NCBI GenBank assembly: GCA_045592405.1
Contig: JAZNUR010000097.1
Location: 7,220 to 71,219, forward strand
Length of the DNA stretch: 64,000 nt
Origin: Oscillospiraceae bacterium
Lineage (GTDB): Bacteria > Bacillota > Clostridia > Oscillospirales > Ruminococcaceae
Reading direction: 5' to 3'
The position numbers were made by a program, and so were the translations under genes. Positions 51,354 through 60,485 of the stretch are shown one piece after another. Each line of letters opens with the position of its first letter. Within the stretch, counting starts at the first letter, position 1. Below the pieces are notes generated by a model. The model searched no databases and was not told where the DNA came from. It saw nothing but the letters and a program-made list of their open reading frames with translations.

Positions 51354-51554
51354 ATGCGGTATTTAGAACGATTTGATATGAAAATCATTTCTGCAAATGC
51401 AGAGGATCTGTATGTGATGATCAAGCATTTCAGCGAGGATCATGATATTTCCTTCAGTGATGCTAAGGATATTATCCTGACTTCCGTAATCGGAAGTCTT
51501 GGTGTTGAACAGAATATCGCAGAAATTGCAAAAAAGATGGACAGATTATCGTAA
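51354..51554 (+). CDS. Small hypothetical protein
   Basis: 66-aa ORF packed tightly between the aminopeptidase gene and xth. No motif recognised. Confidence 0.3.
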   Translation: MRYLERFDMKIISANAEDLYVMIKHFSEDHDISFSDAKDIILTSVIGSLGVEQNIAEIAKKMDRLS

Positions 51555-51571
51555 AGGAGATCGAAGATGCA

Positions 51572-52324
51572 ATGAAACTGATTTCATGGAATGTCAACGG
51601 ATTTCGTGCGTGTCTGACAAAAGGTTTTGAGGAAAGTTTCAAGCAATTGGATGCAGATATTTTCTGCATCCAGGAAACGAAAATGCAGCCCGAACAGGTT
51701 ACGACTTCCTTTGAGGGCTATCTTCAGTATTTCAACAGTGCGGTGAAAAAAGGGTATTCCGGTACAGCAGTTTTCACTAAAAACGAACCCATTTCCGTAA
51801 CGTTCAACTTTGAGAGGCACATGGATGAAGGTCGTGCCATTGTGTGTGAGTATGACAAGTTCTTTCTGGTGAATCTCTATGTTCCGAATGCTCAAAGGGA
51901 GCTTGCACGCATTGATTACCGTATGCAGTGGGAAGATGATCTGCGGGCATTCCTTTCGGAGCTTGACAAGAAGAAACCGATCATCCTGTGCGGTGATCTG
52001 AACGTTGCACATAAGGAGATCGACCTGAAAAACCCGAAAACCAATGTGGGGAATGCCGGTTTCTCGGACGAAGAACGCGGCAAGTTCGGAGAGCTTCTGG
52101 AAAGCGGTTTTACAGACTCTTTCCGTTATCTGTATCCGGACCTGAAGGATGCTTATACATGGTGGTCGTATATGTTCAAATCCAGAGAACGTAATGTGGG
52201 ATGGAGAATTGACTACTTCCTCGTTTCAACCCGCATTGCGGACAAAATCGTTGATGCGAAAATCTATCCCGATATTCTGGGAAGTGACCATTGTCCGGTG
52301 GGGCTGGAAATTGCAATGGATTAA
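51572..52324 (+). CDS. xth: Exodeoxyribonuclease III
   Basis: MKLISWNVNGFRA, FCIQETK and SDHCPV motifs. Confidence 0.9.
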   Translation: MKLISWNVNGFRACLTKGFEESFKQLDADIFCIQETKMQPEQVTTSFEGYLQYFNSAVKKGYSGTAVFTKNEPISVTFNFERHMDEGRAIVCEYDKFFLVNLYVPNAQRELARIDYRMQWEDDLRAFLSELDKKKPIILCGDLNVAHKEIDLKNPKTNVGNAGFSDEERGKFGELLESGFTDSFRYLYPDLKDAYTWWSYMFKSRERNVGWRIDYFLVSTRIADKIVDAKIYPDILGSDHCPVGLEIAMD

Positions 52325-52325
52325 C

Positions 52326-52359
52326 AAAAACCCGTTTCTGAGCACAGAAACGGGTTTTT
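52326..52359. terminator. Bidirectional terminator between xth(+) and the ACP gene(-)
   Basis: AAAAACCCGTTTCTG-AGCA-CAGAAACGGGTTTTT. Confidence 0.8.
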
Positions 52360-52361
52360 GA

Positions 52362-52604
52362 TTACTTTGCTCTTTCCATGAGAATATCTAGCATCTCACC
52401 AACATTTTTCATACCGCTTACCTCACGCATTGTAAAACGCATACGGAATGCCTTTTCCACCGCTGCAATCAAATTGATATGCTCAAGGCTGTCCCAATCC
52501 TCAATATCCTTTGCGGATGTTGCATCTGTCAGAACGATCTCGTCATCATCGAACACGTCCCGAAATACCTCTGTGAGCTTTGCTTTTACCTGTTCTCTGT
52601 TCAT
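52362..52604 (-). CDS. Acyl/peptidyl carrier protein (DltC/ACP-like)
   Basis: 80 aa, with the phosphopantetheine attachment site in EDWDSLEHINLIAAVE. Confidence 0.8.
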   Translation of the reverse strand: MNREQVKAKLTEVFRDVFDDDEIVLTDATSAKDIEDWDSLEHINLIAAVEKAFRMRFTMREVSGMKNVGEMLDILMERAK

Positions 52605-52620
52605 AGTTATTGTCCTCCTG

Positions 52621-54429
52621 TTATTTTGATGCGGTCATTGCGGATACGGCAATGACTTCATTTTTTTGTGTATATCCTTCGGTATCCAGCTTCCAGATGC
52701 TGTTTCCATCCTCATCCTTTGAAATCTGTGTAAAGCCGAATGTTCCAAACAGCTCGGCTACCATTGCATTTTTCTTGGTGGGAAAGTAATAGCCGTAAAT
52801 TTCTTTAATACCCTGCTTACGGCATTCCATGACGAGGGAATCCAGCATTGCAAACTCCATATCCCGCTTGAGCACACGGCAGCTCATCAGCCACAGTTCC
52901 ACACGAAGTGCTGCCTCTTCCTTTCTGCCTATTACAACGGATACGATACCATTGTCGCCAAATTTATCCTCAAGCCTTCCATAAAGGCGGATATGCTGCT
53001 TGCTCTCTGCTACAGATTCCATTTCTGCCTGCGTATAACGCTTTGTTGTTACATTGAACTGATTGCTCTTATTGGTCAATTGGGTAATTCTGGGAAGATG
53101 CACAGGATCAAAATCACGGATTTCGGCTTTCATATCAAGGCTCAACAAGAAATCCTTATAATTTGCAAATTTCTGCTGTGCTGCCTGACGCTGTGCGTTT
53201 GCCTGATACATTGCGTTACGCTTTGCATCATCCCCCGAAAGTGTCGTCACTTCAAAATAACCGCTTCTATCCAGAGCCAGCATACATTCCTCAACGGAAT
53301 CAAAGGAAATTACGGCGGTATCCGGCAGCTGTGCCTGTACAATGGCACGTTCGGCAGGGTTATCATCCACAAAAACAAAGCTTTCCGGCAGAAGCGTAAG
53401 TTCCTGTGCCATATCGGCGATGTTCATGGATTTCGGCTCCCAATTGGCTTTGATGCAGACAAAGTCCTCGGGTTTCAGTACACCATCGGGGTGTTCCAGA
53501 CCGGAGATGGCGTTTTCGTAATCATTCTTGGAACAAACTGTCAGAAGCACTCCCAGATCCTTATGTGCCTTCAGATAACCCTGCAGCTGTGCATATGCTT
53601 GACCGACGGAGGTTTCCTGTCCGATTTCAATTCCTGCCTGTCCGTCATCGCCGATAACACCGCCCCAAAGGGTATTGTCCAGATCCAAAGCAAGTACTTT
53701 TTTATTTTTTCCCATGAGAGAACAAACAATGTTGGAAAGATTATAAGCAAACTCCGGGATAGCGGGAACGCAGAGGGCATATTTATAGAGATGCCAGTAG
53801 GACGGTTCCAGCCATTTTTCCAGTCCGTAGGAAGCGGAAAGGTAATTAATGTCGTGAATATAAAAATTACTATGCTTTTTGGCATATTCATAGAAACGGC
53901 AATTAAGCTGCGTCAGGAAATCAATTCTTCCATGTATGCACCCAACCTCACGGTTGCCAAGCAGTCGTGTCAGCGGCATTTCAAAATTATTCTGGATGAT
54001 GGGACACTGATATACCTGCATTAAACGATCCCACATCTGAGAAAAATGTGAGTACGCCTGTTCCAGCTTATGTTCCACTACTTCTGCACTGTCACCGATC
54101 TGCGGATATTCCTGTACATTTCGTGAAGATGTGTGGATGAAGATCAGTTCCGGCTTAAACTCCTCCAGAGAGGGATTCTCAAACATGGCGTCGTTCCAGT
54201 ACTGGGCATATTCCGATTGCCAGAACTCGGGGACAATGCCACGGTTTCGAAGAAAAAGTTCCAGCATCAAGATAATATCACTTGTTGTGGAACCACCCAG
54301 AACAGCGATACGAAGCTTTACCGCACCGCTTTCCTGTTCTTTAAGAGTACGCAGCAGCTTTCGGCGTTTCTGCAAAAGCAGTGCACTGTCAAACGGATAA
54401 CATAGTTCCTGCAGCATAAAATCCTCCAT
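52621..54429 (-). CDS. FkbH-like HAD-IIIC phosphatase/acyltransferase
   Basis: The HAD motif I is LALDLDNTLWGGVIGDDG. CSKND is present, and the C-terminal GNAT-like domain carries LMSCRVLKRDME (FkbH-type catalytic Cys region). An N-terminal domain of about 270 aa is unassigned. The ATG at 54429 follows GGGGAAGGGG. Confidence 0.75.
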   Translation of the reverse strand: MEDFMLQELCYPFDSALLLQKRRKLLRTLKEQESGAVKLRIAVLGGSTTSDIILMLELFLRNRGIVPEFWQSEYAQYWNDAMFENPSLEEFKPELIFIHTSSRNVQEYPQIGDSAEVVEHKLEQAYSHFSQMWDRLMQVYQCPIIQNNFEMPLTRLLGNREVGCIHGRIDFLTQLNCRFYEYAKKHSNFYIHDINYLSASYGLEKWLEPSYWHLYKYALCVPAIPEFAYNLSNIVCSLMGKNKKVLALDLDNTLWGGVIGDDGQAGIEIGQETSVGQAYAQLQGYLKAHKDLGVLLTVCSKNDYENAISGLEHPDGVLKPEDFVCIKANWEPKSMNIADMAQELTLLPESFVFVDDNPAERAIVQAQLPDTAVISFDSVEECMLALDRSGYFEVTTLSGDDAKRNAMYQANAQRQAAQQKFANYKDFLLSLDMKAEIRDFDPVHLPRITQLTNKSNQFNVTTKRYTQAEMESVAESKQHIRLYGRLEDKFGDNGIVSVVIGRKEEAALRVELWLMSCRVLKRDMEFAMLDSLVMECRKQGIKEIYGYYFPTKKNAMVAELFGTFGFTQISKDEDGNSIWKLDTEGYTQKNEVIAVSAMTASK

Positions 54430-54472
54430 AAAAATTGCCCCTTCCCCTGCCAGGCAAGGAAAGGGGCAGTCA

Positions 54473-55888
54473 TCAATGCATAATTTTCTGTAACTTTTTG
54501 GAATTACCGCCTGTTGCACTGTACGTGTTCATTGCAAAGAGCACATCGGTAACGCCATGTTCCTTTACAAAGTCAATCACACCGGGCTTGAAATACCGCA
54601 TATCTACAACCCAGATCTCTGAGAAGGACTGGGTAAGACAAGGTACAAGGGCATTTCCGTAGCTGTCCTTGATGATCATCAGCTTTCTGCCGTTGGTACA
54701 GTCGGTTGTAACATGGGTGATGCGTTCATCACCGCCCATGAATACGAGATACCAGCTGGAATTTGCGACATTATCAAGATTGATCAGCAGATTGCCCTGA
54801 CGTTCGTTTGTCATGTCTGTGTTATAATATGTCGTTGTATACTGATTTTTCGGTTTATAGTAAATAAACGGTTCGGGATTGTCCTTGAATACCGCATGAT
54901 TAGTATAACCATAAAGCGTTCCGACATATCCATCCTTTTGTACAGTTTCATATTCGGAAAGTTCTGCAAACGGAACACCCGCAGTTTCCGCAAACGCCTG
55001 TGCTGCGTAGTATGCACCAAGCGGCTGCCAGTGGTGATCAGTTCTGGAATAAATTGCCTCTTTTTTATGCTCTCCCAGAATGGAGTAAGCATCCACAGGC
55101 TGCACACCATTGAAGAAGCTGTTAATATGGTTGATATTTTCCAGCTCACTTGCAGTGGATGATGCATATTTCTTCGGGAGATAATAGGAAACCGCTGTCG
55201 GTGCAACAAGAGAATAGACATTCACACCTTCACCAAGTTCCGCTTTATACTGATTCAGTGTTTCTGCATATTTCTGACCGTTTGCAAAACCACCGCCGTA
55301 TAGCATGATACCACGATCCTTAACAATGAGGATATTATTGGCGATCTCGCCTTCATAATCCTCCTCTTCTTCAAGTTCGGTGGTGGCTTCCGTGGTTTCG
55401 GTCATCTCAGTCGTTTCAGTTGGACTTGTTTCCTGTGTGGAATCCTCCGTTGCAAGTGTTGTTTCCTCAGTCGGCTCAGTTTCGGAAGGTTCCGTTGTTT
55501 CTTCGGGTTTATTCTCGATGGTCGGAATGTTTCCGATGATGATAACGCCATCATCATAGGGAATGCCGAGATTCGCACGAAAATCGGATATCATAGCCTT
55601 GAAGGTGCTTCGCATCGGTACAGTGTCATTATAGAACTGTGCGAACTGAGAAGTGAAGGTACCGTCAAGGTAGGAGGAAATTGAAAATTTCGGACATTTT
55701 GTCAAGTCACGGTTTTCTTCCTCAGATTTTGTCGGCCTTTCTGCAAGCACCATGAACACAGCAATTACAGCCATGCAAATAAGCAGTGCCATAACGTTAA
55801 AACTATGTGTCCAGTGGTCAACCATACGTTTTTTATTGATTTTACGTTTTCTGGGTGCAGCAGCACGATTCTGTTTCTGATTCATCAT
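54473..55888 (-). CDS. DHHW-family (AlgX/AlgJ/DltD-like) extracytoplasmic acyltransferase
   Basis: N-terminal TM anchor, a Thr/Glu-rich linker, and the SRTDHHWQPLGAYYA signature. Confidence 0.8.
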   Translation of the reverse strand: MMNQKQNRAAAPRKRKINKKRMVDHWTHSFNVMALLICMAVIAVFMVLAERPTKSEEENRDLTKCPKFSISSYLDGTFTSQFAQFYNDTVPMRSTFKAMISDFRANLGIPYDDGVIIIGNIPTIENKPEETTEPSETEPTEETTLATEDSTQETSPTETTEMTETTEATTELEEEEDYEGEIANNILIVKDRGIMLYGGGFANGQKYAETLNQYKAELGEGVNVYSLVAPTAVSYYLPKKYASSTASELENINHINSFFNGVQPVDAYSILGEHKKEAIYSRTDHHWQPLGAYYAAQAFAETAGVPFAELSEYETVQKDGYVGTLYGYTNHAVFKDNPEPFIYYKPKNQYTTTYYNTDMTNERQGNLLINLDNVANSSWYLVFMGGDERITHVTTDCTNGRKLMIIKDSYGNALVPCLTQSFSEIWVVDMRYFKPGVIDFVKEHGVTDVLFAMNTYSATGGNSKKLQKIMH

Positions 55889-55897
55889 CCCACCCCC

Positions 55898-57298
55898 TTA
55901 AAACCTGTAATACAGGAATGCCTTGGTTGTGGCATCCACCAGAAGGATACTGCTCAAAAGAAGAAGCACGACACTGACGATTGTTCCTGTAAAAGAAACT
56001 GCCATCTTTGCACGCAGTGAGCGATCGGATAATTTCTTGGGTATCTCCAAAATCGGAAATGTGCAGATAATCGCTACAATAATCAAGAAGAGATTATTGC
56101 AGAACGAAGCCTGCTCGTAGATGCCAAAGAAACCATTGGAATTGAATAGTGTCAGATTCTTCAGGAAAAGTCCCAATTCGCCCAGATCTTCAAAGTAGAA
56201 AATACCGAATCCTATGATAATGACAAGCTTATTATAGATATGTCTGATCCACAAAGGAATGGCACGCATTTTCTTCTTGCCGATTTTTGTTTCGATCATG
56301 ATAAACATACCATAATACAAGCCCCAGATCACGTAATTCCAGCTTGCACCGTGCCAGATTCCGGTACAGAGCCATACCATGAACAGACTCAGGTATTTAT
56401 TGCGGACGCCAAAGAACGAAAGCGGCAACAGATAATCTCTGAAGAATGACCCAAGAGAAATGTGCCATCTCTGCCAGAATTCCGTAATATCTTTGCAAAG
56501 GAACGGATGATTAAAGTTTTCATCAAAGTGGAAACCGAAGATTCTGCCCAGTCCGATTGCCATATCGGAGTAGCCGGAAAAGTCAAAATAGATATACAGC
56601 GAATAAATAATCACACCATACCATGTTCCGACAACGGTCAGCGTTTCCATTCCCGAACCGAGAGAATCGTCAACAATACGGAACAGCTGATCTGCCAGTA
56701 TCACTTTTTTTGCCAGACCGATCACAAATCTTGTCAGACCACAGCTGAGATCTTCGAGGGTAGTATGCCTGTCATTGATTTCCTCGGCAATGGTGCTGTA
56801 ACGGACGATCGGACCTGCAATCAGCTGTGGGAACAACGAAACGTAGAGCAGGAAATTCAACATATTGCGTTGCGGTTCCACCTTTTCCCAGTAACAGTCA
56901 ATGACATAGGACATGACTTGGAATGTGTAAAAGCTGATTCCGACAAGCTGTGCAATCTGCGGTACGGGAAATTCAGCACCAAAGATGGCATTGATATTTT
57001 CCATCAGAAAGCCGCTGTACTTGAATACACCGATCATGCCAATATTATAAACAAGACTTAAGCCAAGTATCGCTTTGCCGGCTTTGTTTTTATAGCGTGC
57101 AACACCAAGTCCGAAAAAGTAGTTGAGAAATGCACTCAGCAGTAAAAATACAATGCGTGTCGGTTCGCCCCACGCATAGAAAATCAACGAAAAAATAACC
57201 AGTATCAAATTTCGATACCGGATCTGCTTTACCGCTGCATAACTGATCAGGCACAGCGGCAGAAATAAGTAAATGAAAATTAAGCTGGAAAAAATCAT
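55898..57298 (-). CDS. MBOAT-family membrane O-acyltransferase (AlgI/DltB-like)
   Basis: 466-aa polytopic protein with MIFSSLIFIYLFLP N-terminus, FWQRWHISL, and the conserved His region WHGASWNY. Start set at M30 of the track ORF. Confidence 0.85.
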   Translation of the reverse strand: MIFSSLIFIYLFLPLCLISYAAVKQIRYRNLILVIFSLIFYAWGEPTRIVFLLLSAFLNYFFGLGVARYKNKAGKAILGLSLVYNIGMIGVFKYSGFLMENINAIFGAEFPVPQIAQLVGISFYTFQVMSYVIDCYWEKVEPQRNMLNFLLYVSLFPQLIAGPIVRYSTIAEEINDRHTTLEDLSCGLTRFVIGLAKKVILADQLFRIVDDSLGSGMETLTVVGTWYGVIIYSLYIYFDFSGYSDMAIGLGRIFGFHFDENFNHPFLCKDITEFWQRWHISLGSFFRDYLLPLSFFGVRNKYLSLFMVWLCTGIWHGASWNYVIWGLYYGMFIMIETKIGKKKMRAIPLWIRHIYNKLVIIIGFGIFYFEDLGELGLFLKNLTLFNSNGFFGIYEQASFCNNLFLIIVAIICTFPILEIPKKLSDRSLRAKMAVSFTGTIVSVVLLLLSSILLVDATTKAFLYYRF

Positions 57299-57428
57299 TT
57301 TGTACTGCCTCTTGTTCTTTTCTCTATTTTTAGATTTTGTGGAAAACTTGTTTGAAAATGTGCGTTTTTCTACCAAAAAAACCATGGGTTTTGCAACATT
57401 TTGCCTTCAGTTTCATCCCACTATCATT

Positions 57429-57457
57429 ATTATACGTCATTCTTTTTGGATTTTCAA
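57429..57457 (-). promoter_or_regulatory. Sigma-A-type promoter for the MBOAT operon
   Basis: Minus strand has TTGAAA, a 17-nt spacer, then TATAAT, about 125 nt upstream of the ATG. Confidence 0.45.
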
Positions 57458-57541
57458 TAGTAAAATTGAAACTTTAAAATTTTTCAGAAATTTCGTCGAT
57501 TTATACAAAAAGTTGCAAAATCTGACAGTATTTTTCAATAC

Positions 57542-57577
57542 TTTAAAACGCCGCACCTCAATGTCACAGGTGCGGCG
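57542..57577 (-). terminator. Intrinsic terminator after pdxK
   Basis: CGCCGCACCT-N9-AGGTGCGGCG. On the minus strand it is followed by TTTTAAAG. Confidence 0.6.
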
Positions 57578-57586
57578 AAATCTCTG

Positions 57587-58429
57587 TTAAAAACCGGAAT
57601 ATAGTCTTCGGAACAGATATGGAAAGGCTGCTTCATAATGTACACCATACCATCTTGCGTCGTCTGCAACTGCGGTTGCACGGATACTTTCCAAGGTGAA
57701 GTCTTCTGCAAGTCTTGCAGACTGTTCGAGTGACATTCCGCAAAGCAGACCACCGACACAGGTGCTTGCAAATACATCCCCCGTGCCATGAAACTGCTGG
57801 GGGAATTTTTTATGAAAATAAGAGAAATACTGCTTGCGGACAGCATCGTATCCCATGAATCCGACTTCGCTTTCCGCAAAGCTGACACCGGTAAGGATTA
57901 CCATTTTTGTTCCAAAATCGGAAAGCTTCAGCAGAATATCACGAACATAGCTTTCGTCATAGCCGTCGTTGGGGTACGGTACTCCCAATAGACACGCTGC
58001 TTCTGTCATGTTCGGCACAATGATATCCGCTACTTTGCACAATTGTTGCATATGTCGTGGAAACTCGTCGGAAAAGCCACTGTACAGTCTACCGAAGTCC
58101 CCAAGTACCGGATCCACAAAAACAGATGTTTCGGCATTTCGGAACTGTGAGATGATGTTCTGCACGATCGCTACCTGTTCCACCGATCCGAGATAGCCGG
58201 TATAGATCGCATCAAATTCGATCCTCTGCTGTTTCCATTGGTCGGCAATGGACTGCATCTGTGCTGTCAGATCAAGAAATGTATAATCATTGAATGCAGT
58301 ATGTGTGGACAGTACTGCTGTGGGAAGAATTACAGTTTCAATCCCCATTGCTGACAGAATCGGCAATGCAGCTGTAACGGAGCATTTCCCTGCACAGGAG
58401 ATATCCTGAATTGTCAGAATTCGTTTCAT
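57587..58429 (-). CDS. pdxK: Pyridoxal/pyridoxamine kinase
   Basis: ILTIQDISCAGKCS N-terminus and a ribokinase-fold C-terminal GTGDVFAS motif. Confidence 0.85.
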   Translation of the reverse strand: MKRILTIQDISCAGKCSVTAALPILSAMGIETVILPTAVLSTHTAFNDYTFLDLTAQMQSIADQWKQQRIEFDAIYTGYLGSVEQVAIVQNIISQFRNAETSVFVDPVLGDFGRLYSGFSDEFPRHMQQLCKVADIIVPNMTEAACLLGVPYPNDGYDESYVRDILLKLSDFGTKMVILTGVSFAESEVGFMGYDAVRKQYFSYFHKKFPQQFHGTGDVFASTCVGGLLCGMSLEQSARLAEDFTLESIRATAVADDARWYGVHYEAAFPYLFRRLYSGF

Positions 58430-58512
58430 GGTATGCCTCCTTTTTCGACTCTATTATTATAGATGATTTCTGTACGAAAGTCAATGGTTTTCTGACAGAA
58501 ACGCAAAAATAT

Positions 58513-58541
58513 TTGACATTCTTCGTAATTCCTGTTATAAT
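58513..58541 (+). promoter_or_regulatory. Sigma-A-type promoter for the ABC-F gene
   Basis: TTGACA, a 17-nt spacer, then TATAAT. Confidence 0.55.
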
Positions 58542-58571
58542 TAAATTTAGTGTAAATAAGGGGTGAGAACG

Positions 58572-60485
58572 ATGCTTTTAAAAGCAGTTAACATTCATAA
58601 AATATATAATGGCATTCCGTTGATTTCCAATGTCAATTTGCAGATTGACGATCAGGACAGAATCGGTTTGATTGGTGCGAACGGCTGTGGTAAATCCACG
58701 CTGCTGAAGATTCTGCTTGGTGAGGTTCTTCCCGATCGTGAGACGGAGAACGAAGGTATCATTATCCGTGGTTCAAGAACTTCCGTGGGATATCTGGCAC
58801 AGTCCGCTGCACTGGACTCAGAAAAGACAGTCTGGGAGGAGATGCGTGGTGTTTTCGCAGCACTTCTGGAAACTCAGGAGAAAATGCGGGAAGCGGAACA
58901 GCAAATGCAAAGCGGCAATATGGAAATTGCTGCGGAATATGACCGCATGATGGCGTGGTTTGAGGCAAATGACGGCTATCAGATCGACGTGAAAATCAAG
59001 ACGGTACTGCACGGCATGGGATTCACCGAACCGGAATTTCATCGGGAAGTGTCAAGCTTCAGCGGCGGTGAGAAAACCAGACTTGCCATCACCAAGCTTT
59101 TGCTGGAAGCTCCGAATCTTCTGGTTCTTGATGAACCTACAAACCATCTGGATTTTGAAACGATACAATGGCTGGAGGAATACTTGCAGAGTTACAAGGG
59201 GGCATTGCTGATCGTTTCCCATGATCGTTACTTTCTTGATAAACTTGCAACCTCTATCTGTGAAATTGAACGTGGTAAACTGACAAGATTCAAAGGAAAT
59301 TATTCCTCCTATACCGTGCAGAAAGCAGCTGCTGTGGAACGACAGGAAAAGGAATATGCTCTGCAGCAAAAGGAAATTGCCAAGCTTGAGGATTACGTTG
59401 CAAGAAACTTAGTACGTGCATCCACTTCCAAAAGTGCACAGAGCCGTCAGAAACAGCTTGACCGCATGGAACGAATTGAAAAGCCCGTTACGCATGAAAA
59501 ACGAGCAAATCTGAAATTCTCCTATGAAGTGGAACCCCCTCTGGATGTGTTGGAGGTAAGGGATGCGGATATTTCCGTAGGTGAAGGGCTTGACAGAAAA
59601 ACACTGCTTCGGAATATCAGCTTTGCGATCCGCAGGGGTGAAAAGCTGGGCATTGTCGGAGTAAATGGCATCGGCAAATCGACGCTGCTCAAGGAAATTA
59701 TGAATCTGCTTCCCCATCAGGGACTCATCCGATTCAACAAGAATGTAAAGCTTGCGTATTTTGATCAGGAGAGTACAAATCTGAATCCGGATAACACTGT
59801 AATCGACGAGCTGCATGACAGATTCCCCGCAATGCTGGATGGCGAAATACGAGGCATTCTCGGGCAAGTTCGCATTACAGGTGAAAATGTATTCAAGCGG
59901 ATTTCTGCATTGAGCGGCGGCGAACGTGCGAGAGTGTGCTTTGCACTCCTCATGCTTGAACACGCAAATGTGATGCTCCTTGACGAACCGACGAACCATA
60001 TTGATCTTCCAATGAAGGAAGTGCTGGAGGAGGCTTTGGATGCCTATACCGGAACACTGCTGTTTGTTTCCCATGACCGTTACTTCCTCAAACGGCTTGC
60101 AACACAGATTCTGGAGCTGACAGAAAATGCTGCGATTCTGCATCCCTACGGTTTTGAGCAATATCTGGAAGAAAAGGCAAAACTCAAATCCGCTGCTCTT
60201 GCAGCGGCACAGCAAGCTGTTGTACAAACAAAACCGAAGGCAGCAGCACCACATCGTTCAAAGGCTCAGCGTAGTGCGGATGCAGCAAGACGCAATCGCA
60301 TCAGAGAACTCGAACAGACAATTGAACAACTGGATCAGAAGATTTCTGAACTCGAAACAAATCTTACACTTCCGGAGATCTGTACGGATTATCAGAAAAT
60401 GCATGATGTTTGTGCGGAGTTGGAACAGGCAAAAATTCAGTCAGAAGAATGCTTTTTGGAATTGTGCGAGCTGGAAGATGTTTAA
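58572..60485 (+). CDS. ABC-F family ATPase (two ABC domains, no TM domain)
   Basis: GANGCGKST and GVNGIGKST Walker A motifs, LSGGEK and LSGGER signatures, an inter-domain linker, and a C-terminal coiled-coil. Confidence 0.9.
   Translation: MLLKAVNIHKIYNGIPLISNVNLQIDDQDRIGLIGANGCGKSTLLKILLGEVLPDRETENEGIIIRGSRTSVGYLAQSAALDSEKTVWEEMRGVFAALLETQEKMREAEQQMQSGNMEIAAEYDRMMAWFEANDGYQIDVKIKTVLHGMGFTEPEFHREVSSFSGGEKTRLAITKLLLEAPNLLVLDEPTNHLDFETIQWLEEYLQSYKGALLIVSHDRYFLDKLATSICEIERGKLTRFKGNYSSYTVQKAAAVERQEKEYALQQKEIAKLEDYVARNLVRASTSKSAQSRQKQLDRMERIEKPVTHEKRANLKFSYEVEPPLDVLEVRDADISVGEGLDRKTLLRNISFAIRRGEKLGIVGVNGIGKSTLLKEIMNLLPHQGLIRFNKNVKLAYFDQESTNLNPDNTVIDELHDRFPAMLDGEIRGILGQVRITGENVFKRISALSGGERARVCFALLMLEHANVMLLDEPTNHIDLPMKEVLEEALDAYTGTLLFVSHDRYFLKRLATQILELTENAAILHPYGFEQYLEEKAKLKSAALAAAQQAVVQTKPKAAAPHRSKAQRSADAARRNRIRELEQTIEQLDQKISELETNLTLPEICTDYQKMHDVCAELEQAKIQSEECFLELCELEDV

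Follow-up and report, generated by a model that had tools for sequence, protein, structure and literature searches.

An MBOAT-DHHW operon with an FkbH-like loader and a carrier protein in Oscillospiraceae: a candidate surface-acylation relay

Introduction

Acyl decorations of the bacterial envelope, such as O-acetyl and D-alanyl groups, govern resistance to lysozyme and antimicrobial peptides, autolysis, phage adsorption and immune recognition. In the Dlt pathway, DltB, a membrane-bound O-acyltransferase (MBOAT), passes D-alanine from the carrier protein DltC onto a tyrosine within FxYxxF, the C-terminal motif of DltX, which delivers it to a serine of DltD (PMC12148441). In PatA/PatB, and by inference in the systems that act on alginate, on cellulose and on secondary cell wall polysaccharide (SCWP), the corresponding hexapeptide is fused to the MBOAT's C-terminal end and the donor is acetyl-CoA (PMC12148441). 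According to the same 2025 paper, MBOAT/SGNH pathways other than Dlt lack a carrier protein, and Dlt is treated as the sole carrier-fed pathway of this kind, the others using acyl-CoA (PMC12148441). Here we describe a four-gene operon on the minus strand (52362-57298) of a 64,000-nucleotide stretch from an Oscillospiraceae bacterium (GenBank assembly GCA_045592405.1, contig JAZNUR010000097.1, positions 7,220 to 71,219; hereafter the window), which encodes an MBOAT, a DHHW-family protein, an FkbH-like protein and a small carrier protein, in that order.

Judged from their sequences, these four proteins constitute a hybrid system, with a PatA-like fused shuttle, an AlgX/DHHW-type outer enzyme, a Dlt-like carrier and an FkbH loader replacing the ligase. 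We regard the chances as evenly balanced that the operon is a relay that places a small hydroxy-acyl group on an extracytoplasmic wall polymer, the glyceryl identity of that group being a further uncertainty within this estimate. A published description of this combination of MBOAT, DHHW, FkbH and carrier was not found in the full-text literature, a coverage that leaves most subscription journals outside; an earlier interpretation of the same DNA made from the letters alone (hereafter the sequence-only reading), which had first proposed such a relay, likewise knew of no characterised example.

Results

The open reading frames (ORFs) of the four genes confirmed the positions and the gaps of 9, 43 and 16 nt that the sequence-only reading had given, the second gap becoming 55 nt if the FkbH-like protein starts at 54417. 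Orthologous loci were collected by scanning one genome per GTDB species with clade-specific peptide patterns, which yielded 491 loci, and the best 80 of the 491 (58-96% identity) were analysed.

The gene for the FkbH-like protein (52621-54417, minus strand) encodes 598 aa from the start at 54417 or 602 aa from an alternative start at 54429. The former appears more likely, because GGAGG lies 5 nt upstream and the 598-aa product is 100% identical to a database protein (P0001); the motifs DLDNTLWGG and LMSCRVLKR recognised in the sequence-only reading were confirmed, but the 602-aa length assumed there is probably too long. Three domains are present, namely FkbH_N, a HAD-IIIC phosphatase domain (D245, D247, K297, D351/D352) and a GNAT-fold domain with Cys513 in LMSCRVLKR. 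The protein scored 281 bits against the NCBIfam FkbH model TIGR01686 (cut-off 146.65; model positions 3-320 of 323) and 65.4 bits against the HAD-IIIC model (cut-off 35.75), and Pfam FkbH_N also matched. Its relatives form 14,282 clusters at 50% identity (E up to 1e-3).

We aligned the protein, using MAFFT, with ZmaN, a Streptomyces HAD-IIIC protein linked to an acyl carrier protein (ACP), the FkbH domain of a 5663-aa megasynthase and nine diverse representatives. The motifs DLDNT (Asp245, Asp247), SKN (Lys297), DD (351/352) and LMSC513RV were common to the window protein and the aligned FkbH set, so that the catalytic residues (the aspartate nucleophile, the lysine, the DD pair and the cysteine of SCR) fall in register with those of ZmaN and of domains from polyketide synthases (PKSs). 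The gene used for comparison as ZmaN lies on a B. thuringiensis plasmid, next to genes for a hybrid non-ribosomal peptide synthetase (NRPS)/PKS, an LLM oxidoreductase, an ABC exporter, a HAD-IIIC protein, an NRPS, a thioesterase and another NRPS. We take this neighbourhood to be the zwittermicin cluster, and the HAD-IIIC homologue therefore to be ZmaN, which reportedly forms glyceryl-ACP. Across a 59-sequence alignment (31-100% identity), Asp245 was invariant and Cys513 was found in at least 90%, while both DLDNTLWGG and [L/I]MSCRVLKR occurred in every orthologue (80/80 each).

The first 373 residues match PDB 3SLR (1.7e-44), the N-terminal part of Bacteroides fragilis BF1531, and in an AlphaFold model (AF2; pLDDT 93.6) the first two domains superpose on this structure with a TM score of 0.91. 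Unlike the window protein, 3SLR has no Cys-bearing GNAT-fold domain. In the model, Cys513 sits in this C-terminal domain (Foldseek E ~1e-7 to RimI and Ard1), and the GNAT fold is one that binds pantetheine. The OzmB route runs from 1,3-bisphosphoglycerate through phosphoglyceryl-S-enzyme and glyceryl-S-enzyme to glyceryl-ACP (reviewed in PMC9057759), and Cys513 would be the site of the S-enzyme thioester intermediate. Its score above the curated cut-off, together with its motifs, assigns the protein at the level of sequence to the FkbH family, and it appears to pass every sequence test for an FkbH-type loader.

The stand-alone carrier protein (52362-52604, minus strand; 80 aa) contains Ser39 within EDWDSLEH as its predicted phosphopantetheine site (codon 52488-52490). 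The serine that the sequence-only reading had pointed out is thus present, and a match to the solved putative ACP 2LML (1.8e-19), ranked first in the PDB ahead of generic ACPs, agrees with a carrier function; the Pfam PP-binding score, however, was weak at 18.5 bits, under the cut-off of 20.8, and the generic ACP models of NCBIfam were also sub-threshold. All 79 carrier orthologues have WDS[L/I], and the WDS motif recurs in FkbH-adjacent ACPs of S. meliloti, Tistrella and a tetronate-type cluster of Methylosinus.

The MBOAT gene (55898-57298, minus strand; 466 aa) encodes an acyltransferase that scored 94 bits against Pfam MBOAT, in line with its earlier identification. Only the DltB model TIGR04091 of NCBIfam matched, at 161.7 bits and far below its cut-off of 375, and the solved relatives of the protein are DltB structures only. 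By phmmer alignment to DltB (6BUG), its catalytic pair His279 and His316 falls on His289 and His336, which are active-site residues of DltB (PMC11035591). The GxWHG motif is retained in 65/65 orthologues. At the C-terminus, the hexapeptide FLYYRF (55901-55918, minus strand) fits FxYxxF, the motif of the acyl shuttle, and its Tyr463 would carry the acyl group; all window-type orthologues end in FLYxx[F/Y/W]. In the DltC-contact region of DltB (helix HC, Lys312), the window protein has VRNK and DltB has MRNK, a comparison that is uninformative without acetyl-CoA-type MBOATs beside it. In frame, the MBOAT ORF stays open as far as 57385, which would add 29 codons, hydrophilic and rich in Lys (MVFLVEKRTFSNKFSTKSKNREKNKRQYK, 57299-57385); these are probably untranslated, since AAGAGG precedes the ATG at 57298 and that start fits the lengths of the orthologues.

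Between the MBOAT and the loader, the second gene (54473-55888, minus strand) encodes a 471-aa DHHW-family, SGNH-like transferase (Pfam DHHW 161.5 bits, plus ALGX). It has a transmembrane anchor at its N-terminus and a Thr/Glu-rich linker (approximately residues 127-180), both of which the sequence-only reading had seen, and a catalytic domain in which the catalytic residues are D284 in D-H-H-W, Ser409 and D429xR431. Its matches include PDB 4NZK (1.2e-79) and PatB1 of B. cereus (8e-13), and with the latter it has three aligned blocks in common, namely KDS(Y/F) with the nucleophile S409, DxR(Y/H) with the oxyanion residues D429-x-R431-Y, and TDHHW with D284; the roles of these blocks in PatB1 have been described (PMC9487903). 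TDHHW is present in 89 of the 95 DHHW copies of the orthologous loci. PDB 4NZK is EUBSIR_00411 of [Eubacterium] siraeum, an uncharacterised DHHW protein.

Compared with Dlt, the window operon likewise encodes a small phosphopantetheinyl carrier together with an MBOAT, aligned with the catalytic core of DltB and carrying FxYxxF, and a membrane-anchored SGNH-type transferase. It departs from Dlt in having an FkbH/HAD-IIIC loader instead of an adenylating ligase, a shuttle motif fused to the MBOAT instead of a separate DltX microprotein, a DHHW/ALGX outer enzyme instead of DltD, and a predicted neutral glyceroyl group instead of cationic D-alanyl. A DltA or other AMP-binding protein was found neither among the four genes, as the sequence-only reading had remarked, nor in the flanks or the syntenic loci examined. 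With DltA, DltD and DltX absent, an MBOAT that misses the DltB cut-off and an ACP that is not of DltC type, the operon is, on sequence grounds, not a Dlt system. The presence of the histidines, the shuttle motif and an SGNH-like partner makes it, by its motifs, a member of the bacterial MBOAT-SGNH class.

Within that class, the combination of a fused-tail MBOAT with an AlgX/DHHW-type transferase resembles PatA1/PatB1 of Bacillus cereus (SCWP O-acetylation), PatA/PatB, AlgI/AlgJ/AlgX, WssH/WssI and CcsH/CcsI, and the catalytic blocks of the DHHW protein are held in common with PatB1. In contrast to these systems, which have neither a carrier nor a loader and use acetyl-CoA as donor, both are co-conserved with the MBOAT and DHHW genes here (63/67 loci). 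The loader half resembles the FkbH/OzmB/ZmaN enzymes of methoxymalonyl-ACP, hydroxymalonyl-ACP and tetronate synthesis in its curated FkbH score, its DxDxT, K, DD and SCR-Cys motifs and its adjacent WDS-type ACP, and it has the long form with FkbH_N seen in tetronate-type clusters; in the Methylosinus tetronate-type cluster, the same long three-domain architecture stands next to a WDS-type ACP. Unlike polyketide systems with FkbH, the operon has no PKS, ketosynthase, dehydrogenase or methyltransferase, nor any other acyl-tailoring or adenylating gene among its four genes, and its ACP product is predicted to serve a membrane acyltransferase rather than an assembly line. The structural-genomics entries 4NZK, 3SLR and 2LML are relatives of three of the four components, with functions unassigned.

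Nearly all of the best 80 loci come from Oscillospiraceae or Ruminococcus of gut and rumen, among them Ruminococcus callidus ATCC 27760 with its complete genome. Searches with tblastn placed the ACP gene after that for FkbH in 78/78 testable loci, and in 63 of the 67 loci with enough upstream DNA they placed MBOAT and DHHW genes upstream on the same strand, which bears out co-conservation of the quartet in relatives. Since the flanking genes differ entirely between genomes, the four genes behave like a self-contained unit. The number of DHHW copies per locus is one (50 loci), two (5), three (7) or four (1), and such paralogues suggest several acceptors or positions.

MBOAT and DHHW genes are not always adjacent to FkbH-ACP, examples of exceptions being [Eubacterium] siraeum and a Lachnospiraceae variant. 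In [E.] siraeum, gut-metagenome contigs carrying the exact 4NZK sequence have the operon DHHW(4NZK)-DHHW-FkbH-ACP (our locus L088, 7512-12270; also L089-L166), and because it is encoded in this operon, 4NZK is probably the outer transferase of the same system. Two strain variants have, downstream of the operon, an MBOAT with 43% identity to that of the window, which is accompanied by another DHHW-like gene and lies beyond an ECF-type sigma factor and a DUF4358 protein. A 442-aa gene upstream of 4NZK was considered as a divergent MBOAT and rejected, as it encodes a DUF308 membrane protein without similarity to the window MBOAT. In some genomes, an ECF-type sigma factor together with a putative anti-sigma or DUF4358/DUF4367 protein lies directly 5' of the MBOAT gene (the [E.] siraeum strain variants L134, 12550-16702, and L117; L001, 3432-5183). 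This neighbour may point to control of the acylation genes by envelope stress; the window operon adjoins no such sigma/anti-sigma regulator.

Outside Clostridia, four consecutive genes on Sinorhizobium pSymB encode an MBOAT (32% identity), a 409-aa protein with a transmembrane anchor, an ACP (33%) and an FkbH-like protein (32%). This block (NC_003078.1, 631205-636404, in S. meliloti 1021; also L087, 4491-9692, and L169, 3195-8230) is present at 95-100% nucleotide identity on 39 S. meliloti plasmids, including those of 1021, 2011, Rm41 and SM11, and on one S. kummerowiae plasmid, and it lies a few kilobases from capsule biosynthesis and export genes (rkp), including RkpR. On pTM1 of Tistrella mobilis, genes for a hypothetical protein with a transmembrane anchor and an MBOAT are divergent from those for an ACP and a HAD-IIIC protein, with an S-adenosylmethionine (SAM) methyltransferase gene between them. 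The two MBOATs end in FLYQGF (S. meliloti) and FIYAGF (Tistrella).

Neither the 409-aa partner of S. meliloti nor the 340-aa partner of Tistrella has a Pfam match or significant similarity to DHHW, and BLASTP, Pfam and PDB comparisons of the former with DHHW, FkbH_N and the latter gave nothing significant. Common to both are a transmembrane anchor, a block that reads G-G-S-T or G-P-S-S, and DxxH as a C-terminal motif; by motif only we read them as DltD/SGNH-like enzymes. Several records annotate the 409-aa gene as a "TonB-dependent receptor", which looks wrong given its one transmembrane anchor, its GGSTT block and its C-terminal DPGH. This cross-phylum link of MBOAT, ACP and FkbH, with the outer enzyme apparently swapped, is the strongest computational argument for a coupling of MBOAT and carrier.

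A VOC/glyoxalase-family protein recurs beside FkbH-ACP in unrelated genomes (L170, 1509-1928; L174, 7734-8126; L169, 2345-2812; L175, 9283-9750), sometimes with a SAM methyltransferase (L168, L175), and is absent from the window operon. Methylmalonyl-CoA epimerase is a VOC enzyme, and by analogy the VOC protein might epimerise or otherwise modify the ACP-bound unit. On a plasmid of Paroceanicella profunda (L175, 11311-15227), genes for an ACP, a HAD-IIIC protein, a methyltransferase, a VOC protein and a hypothetical protein lie directly 5' of those for an MprF-like lipid aminoacylase/flippase and an AcvB/VirJ hydrolase, an arrangement that suggests a lipid rather than a glycan target for this set.

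The sequence-only reading had placed the window operon between one promoter-like element and one bidirectional terminator. Both ends were found. The promoter candidate (57429-57457, minus strand) is sigma-70-like, with TTGAAA, a 17-nt spacer and TATAAT (11/12 matches), approximately 130 nt 5' of the MBOAT start; promoter-like sites in the region were not enriched over shuffled sequence, and it is position that singles this candidate out. The palindromic terminator (52325-52360), whose 16-bp stem lies between an A-run and a T-run, is common to the operon and the convergent xth gene, in a region no richer in terminator-like sites than shuffled sequence. The stretch between them, however, contains a hairpin, missed in the sequence-only reading, between the DHHW stop and the FkbH start (54436-54468, minus strand), with a perfect 15-bp GC-rich stem followed by AAUUUUUAUGG. 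Its folding energy is -32.5 kcal/mol (z = -3.45), and 0/200 shuffles fold equally well. The equivalent gap holds hairpins of differing sequence in many close relatives (L004-L008, L011, L020, L021, L035, L037 and L041), and in other relatives it measures only 12-30 nt and has no hairpin. This element may be a leaky terminator or an RNA-stability element; it might tune how much of the membrane components is made relative to the cytoplasmic ones, or shield a processed 3' end.

The flanking genes are of housekeeping type: RF1, Sua5, CoaE, an M18 aminopeptidase and Xth make up one flank, while the other has a pyridoxal/HMP-kinase-like gene and an ABC-F gene. A search of 51500-58600 with Rfam revealed no riboswitch or leader and returned only sub-threshold chance matches to Yfr19 and U4.

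Discussion

The proposed relay would begin in the cytoplasm, where, as its family membership suggests, the FkbH-like enzyme would take the acyl group of 1,3-bisphosphoglycerate onto Cys513; Asp245 of the HAD domain would then remove the 3-phosphate, and the GNAT-fold domain would pass the glyceryl group to the phosphopantetheine arm on Ser39. Synteny and the analogy with DltC/DltB suggest that glyceryl-S-ACP would dock on the cytoplasmic face of the MBOAT, whose His316 and His279 would transfer the acyl group through the membrane to Tyr463 in the FLYYRF tail. On the pattern of PatA/PatB, DltX/DltD and PatB1, the tail would hand the acyl group to Ser409 of the DHHW enzyme, which would esterify a hydroxyl of wall polysaccharide, teichoic acid or peptidoglycan to give an O-glyceroyl group (a glycerate ester). 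The idea of a relay, as first put forward from the letters of the window, has held up on the FkbH residues, the synteny and the literature covered, while its statements on the glyceryl identity, the ACP-to-MBOAT hand-off and the acceptor keep their conditional form.

Several observations weigh against this relay. From gene content, catalytic motifs, fold and gene order, we infer its donor, hand-off, product and acceptor. PatA-type MBOATs with a fused FxYxxF motif use acetyl-CoA (PMC12148441), so the window MBOAT could do so too. The ACP shows no specific similarity to DltC, with no D-alanyl carrier protein among its PDB matches to E = 1, and the internal hairpin splits the MBOAT and DHHW genes from those for FkbH and ACP. 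The [E.] siraeum loci have their MBOAT gene 2.3 kb downstream, beyond a sigma factor, or show none within 8 kb. Three loci of the Lachnospiraceae variant have FkbH-ACP and neither MBOAT nor DHHW, and in Subdoligranulum FkbH-ACP is followed by an SDR protein and a weakly GNAT-like protein. In glycan or lipid loci, more distant pairs of FkbH_N and ACP (37-45% identity) are accompanied by cytoplasmic GNATs, KASIII, SDR, MaoC, WcbI, glycosyltransferases and glyoxalase/VOC proteins. Because such pairs occur with other partners elsewhere, FkbH-ACP looks like a portable acyl-donor module untied to MBOAT, the partner transferase of which varies and is MBOAT plus DHHW in the clade of the window. Finally, we know of no substrate test for FkbH-like enzymes outside PKS pathways.

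In the Lachnospiraceae variant (L081, 8004-16803; also L073, L080 and L082), the genes after FkbH-ACP encode a polytopic membrane protein of 513 aa that matches no Pfam family, GtrA, a DUF6044 protein, a radical-SAM/SPASM protein and a GDSL lipase. Here the same acyl unit may reach a surface glycan by another route.

Alternatively, the operon may hold two separate modules, in which the MBOAT and DHHW proteins form an O-acetyltransferase of the PatA1/PatB1 type fed by acetyl-CoA, and FkbH and ACP supply a cytoplasmic acceptor such as a precursor, a lipid or a metabolite. The fused shuttle tail, typical of acetyl-CoA users, and a DHHW family known only from SCWP O-acetylation fit that arrangement to some degree, as do the FkbH-ACP pairs without MBOAT in other genomes, the hairpin dividing the operon and the non-adjacent MBOAT of [E.] siraeum. 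We nevertheless consider it unlikely. Neither the window nor the 63 syntenic loci have a candidate cytoplasmic transferase, the order of the genes persists across 58-96% protein identity amid unrelated flanks, the same association occurs in Alphaproteobacteria with a non-homologous SGNH-like partner, and FkbH-ACP is still joined to DHHW genes where the MBOAT is displaced.

As to the group transferred by the relay, we assign it as glyceryl because of the FkbH membership, the retention of all phosphatase motifs, which points to a donor with a second phosphate, and the lack of tailoring enzymes in the cluster. Glycerate esters of bacterial polysaccharides do exist, gellan carrying glycerate at C2 of glucose (PMC7009714); no gene assignment for the gellan glycerate was found in the literature. 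Alternatively, the relay may be real and its group something other than glycerate, either because the loader takes another phosphorylated acyl donor or because glyceryl-ACP is converted elsewhere (for example to a lactyl, hydroxymalonyl or O-methyl unit) before transfer. Polyketide pathways modify the units that FkbH supplies, related alphaproteobacterial clusters and some gut loci include a SAM methyltransferase and/or a VOC/glyoxalase protein, and the lack of known substrate tests mentioned above favours this version as well. With no tailoring gene in the window operon or in most orthologous loci, and with every HAD phosphatase motif kept, which would make 1,3-bisphosphoglycerate the obvious donor, we judge a non-glycerate group distinctly improbable.

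The acceptor could also be a membrane lipid or a surface protein, in which case the DHHW protein would acylate lipids or proteins or would be an esterase. MBOATs generally acylate lipids and proteins, no glycan-synthesis genes lie near or adjoin the window operon, and the Paroceanicella FkbH-ACP genes stand beside an MprF-like lipid-modifying gene. Against this, DHHW belongs to the AlgX/PatB1 branch of SGNH-like enzymes, the known members of which acylate polysaccharides, the S. meliloti version adjoins capsule export genes, and one to four DHHW paralogues per locus fit several glycan acceptors. We give a lipid or protein acceptor only a slim chance.

On the reading of the operon as a glyceryl relay to a wall polymer, it is a tentative possibility, which we rate somewhat short of even, that the system is the first example of a second widespread class of carrier-dependent MBOAT-SGNH acylation. 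In this class, a glyceryl group drawn straight from glycolysis (1,3-bisphosphoglycerate) would leave the cell through an MBOAT tyrosine shuttle and end as O-glyceroyl esters, both on the wall polymers of abundant Oscillospiraceae in gut and rumen ([Eubacterium] siraeum, Ruminococcus callidus) and on polymers of the capsule or envelope in S. meliloti, with FkbH-ACP as a general, hitherto unrecognised donor module for glycan decoration. If true, a second carrier-fed system would stand beside the D-alanylation of teichoic acid, its loader drawn from polyketide biochemistry, and the three orphan structures 4NZK, 3SLR and 2LML would gain functions. The operon is found in prevalent human-gut and rumen commensals, and an analogous cluster belongs to the core of pSymB in the genetically tractable S. 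meliloti 1021, which makes the hypothesis directly testable. Bacterial surface chemistry would thereby widen to include glycerate esters, and surface decoration would be tied directly to glycolytic flux.

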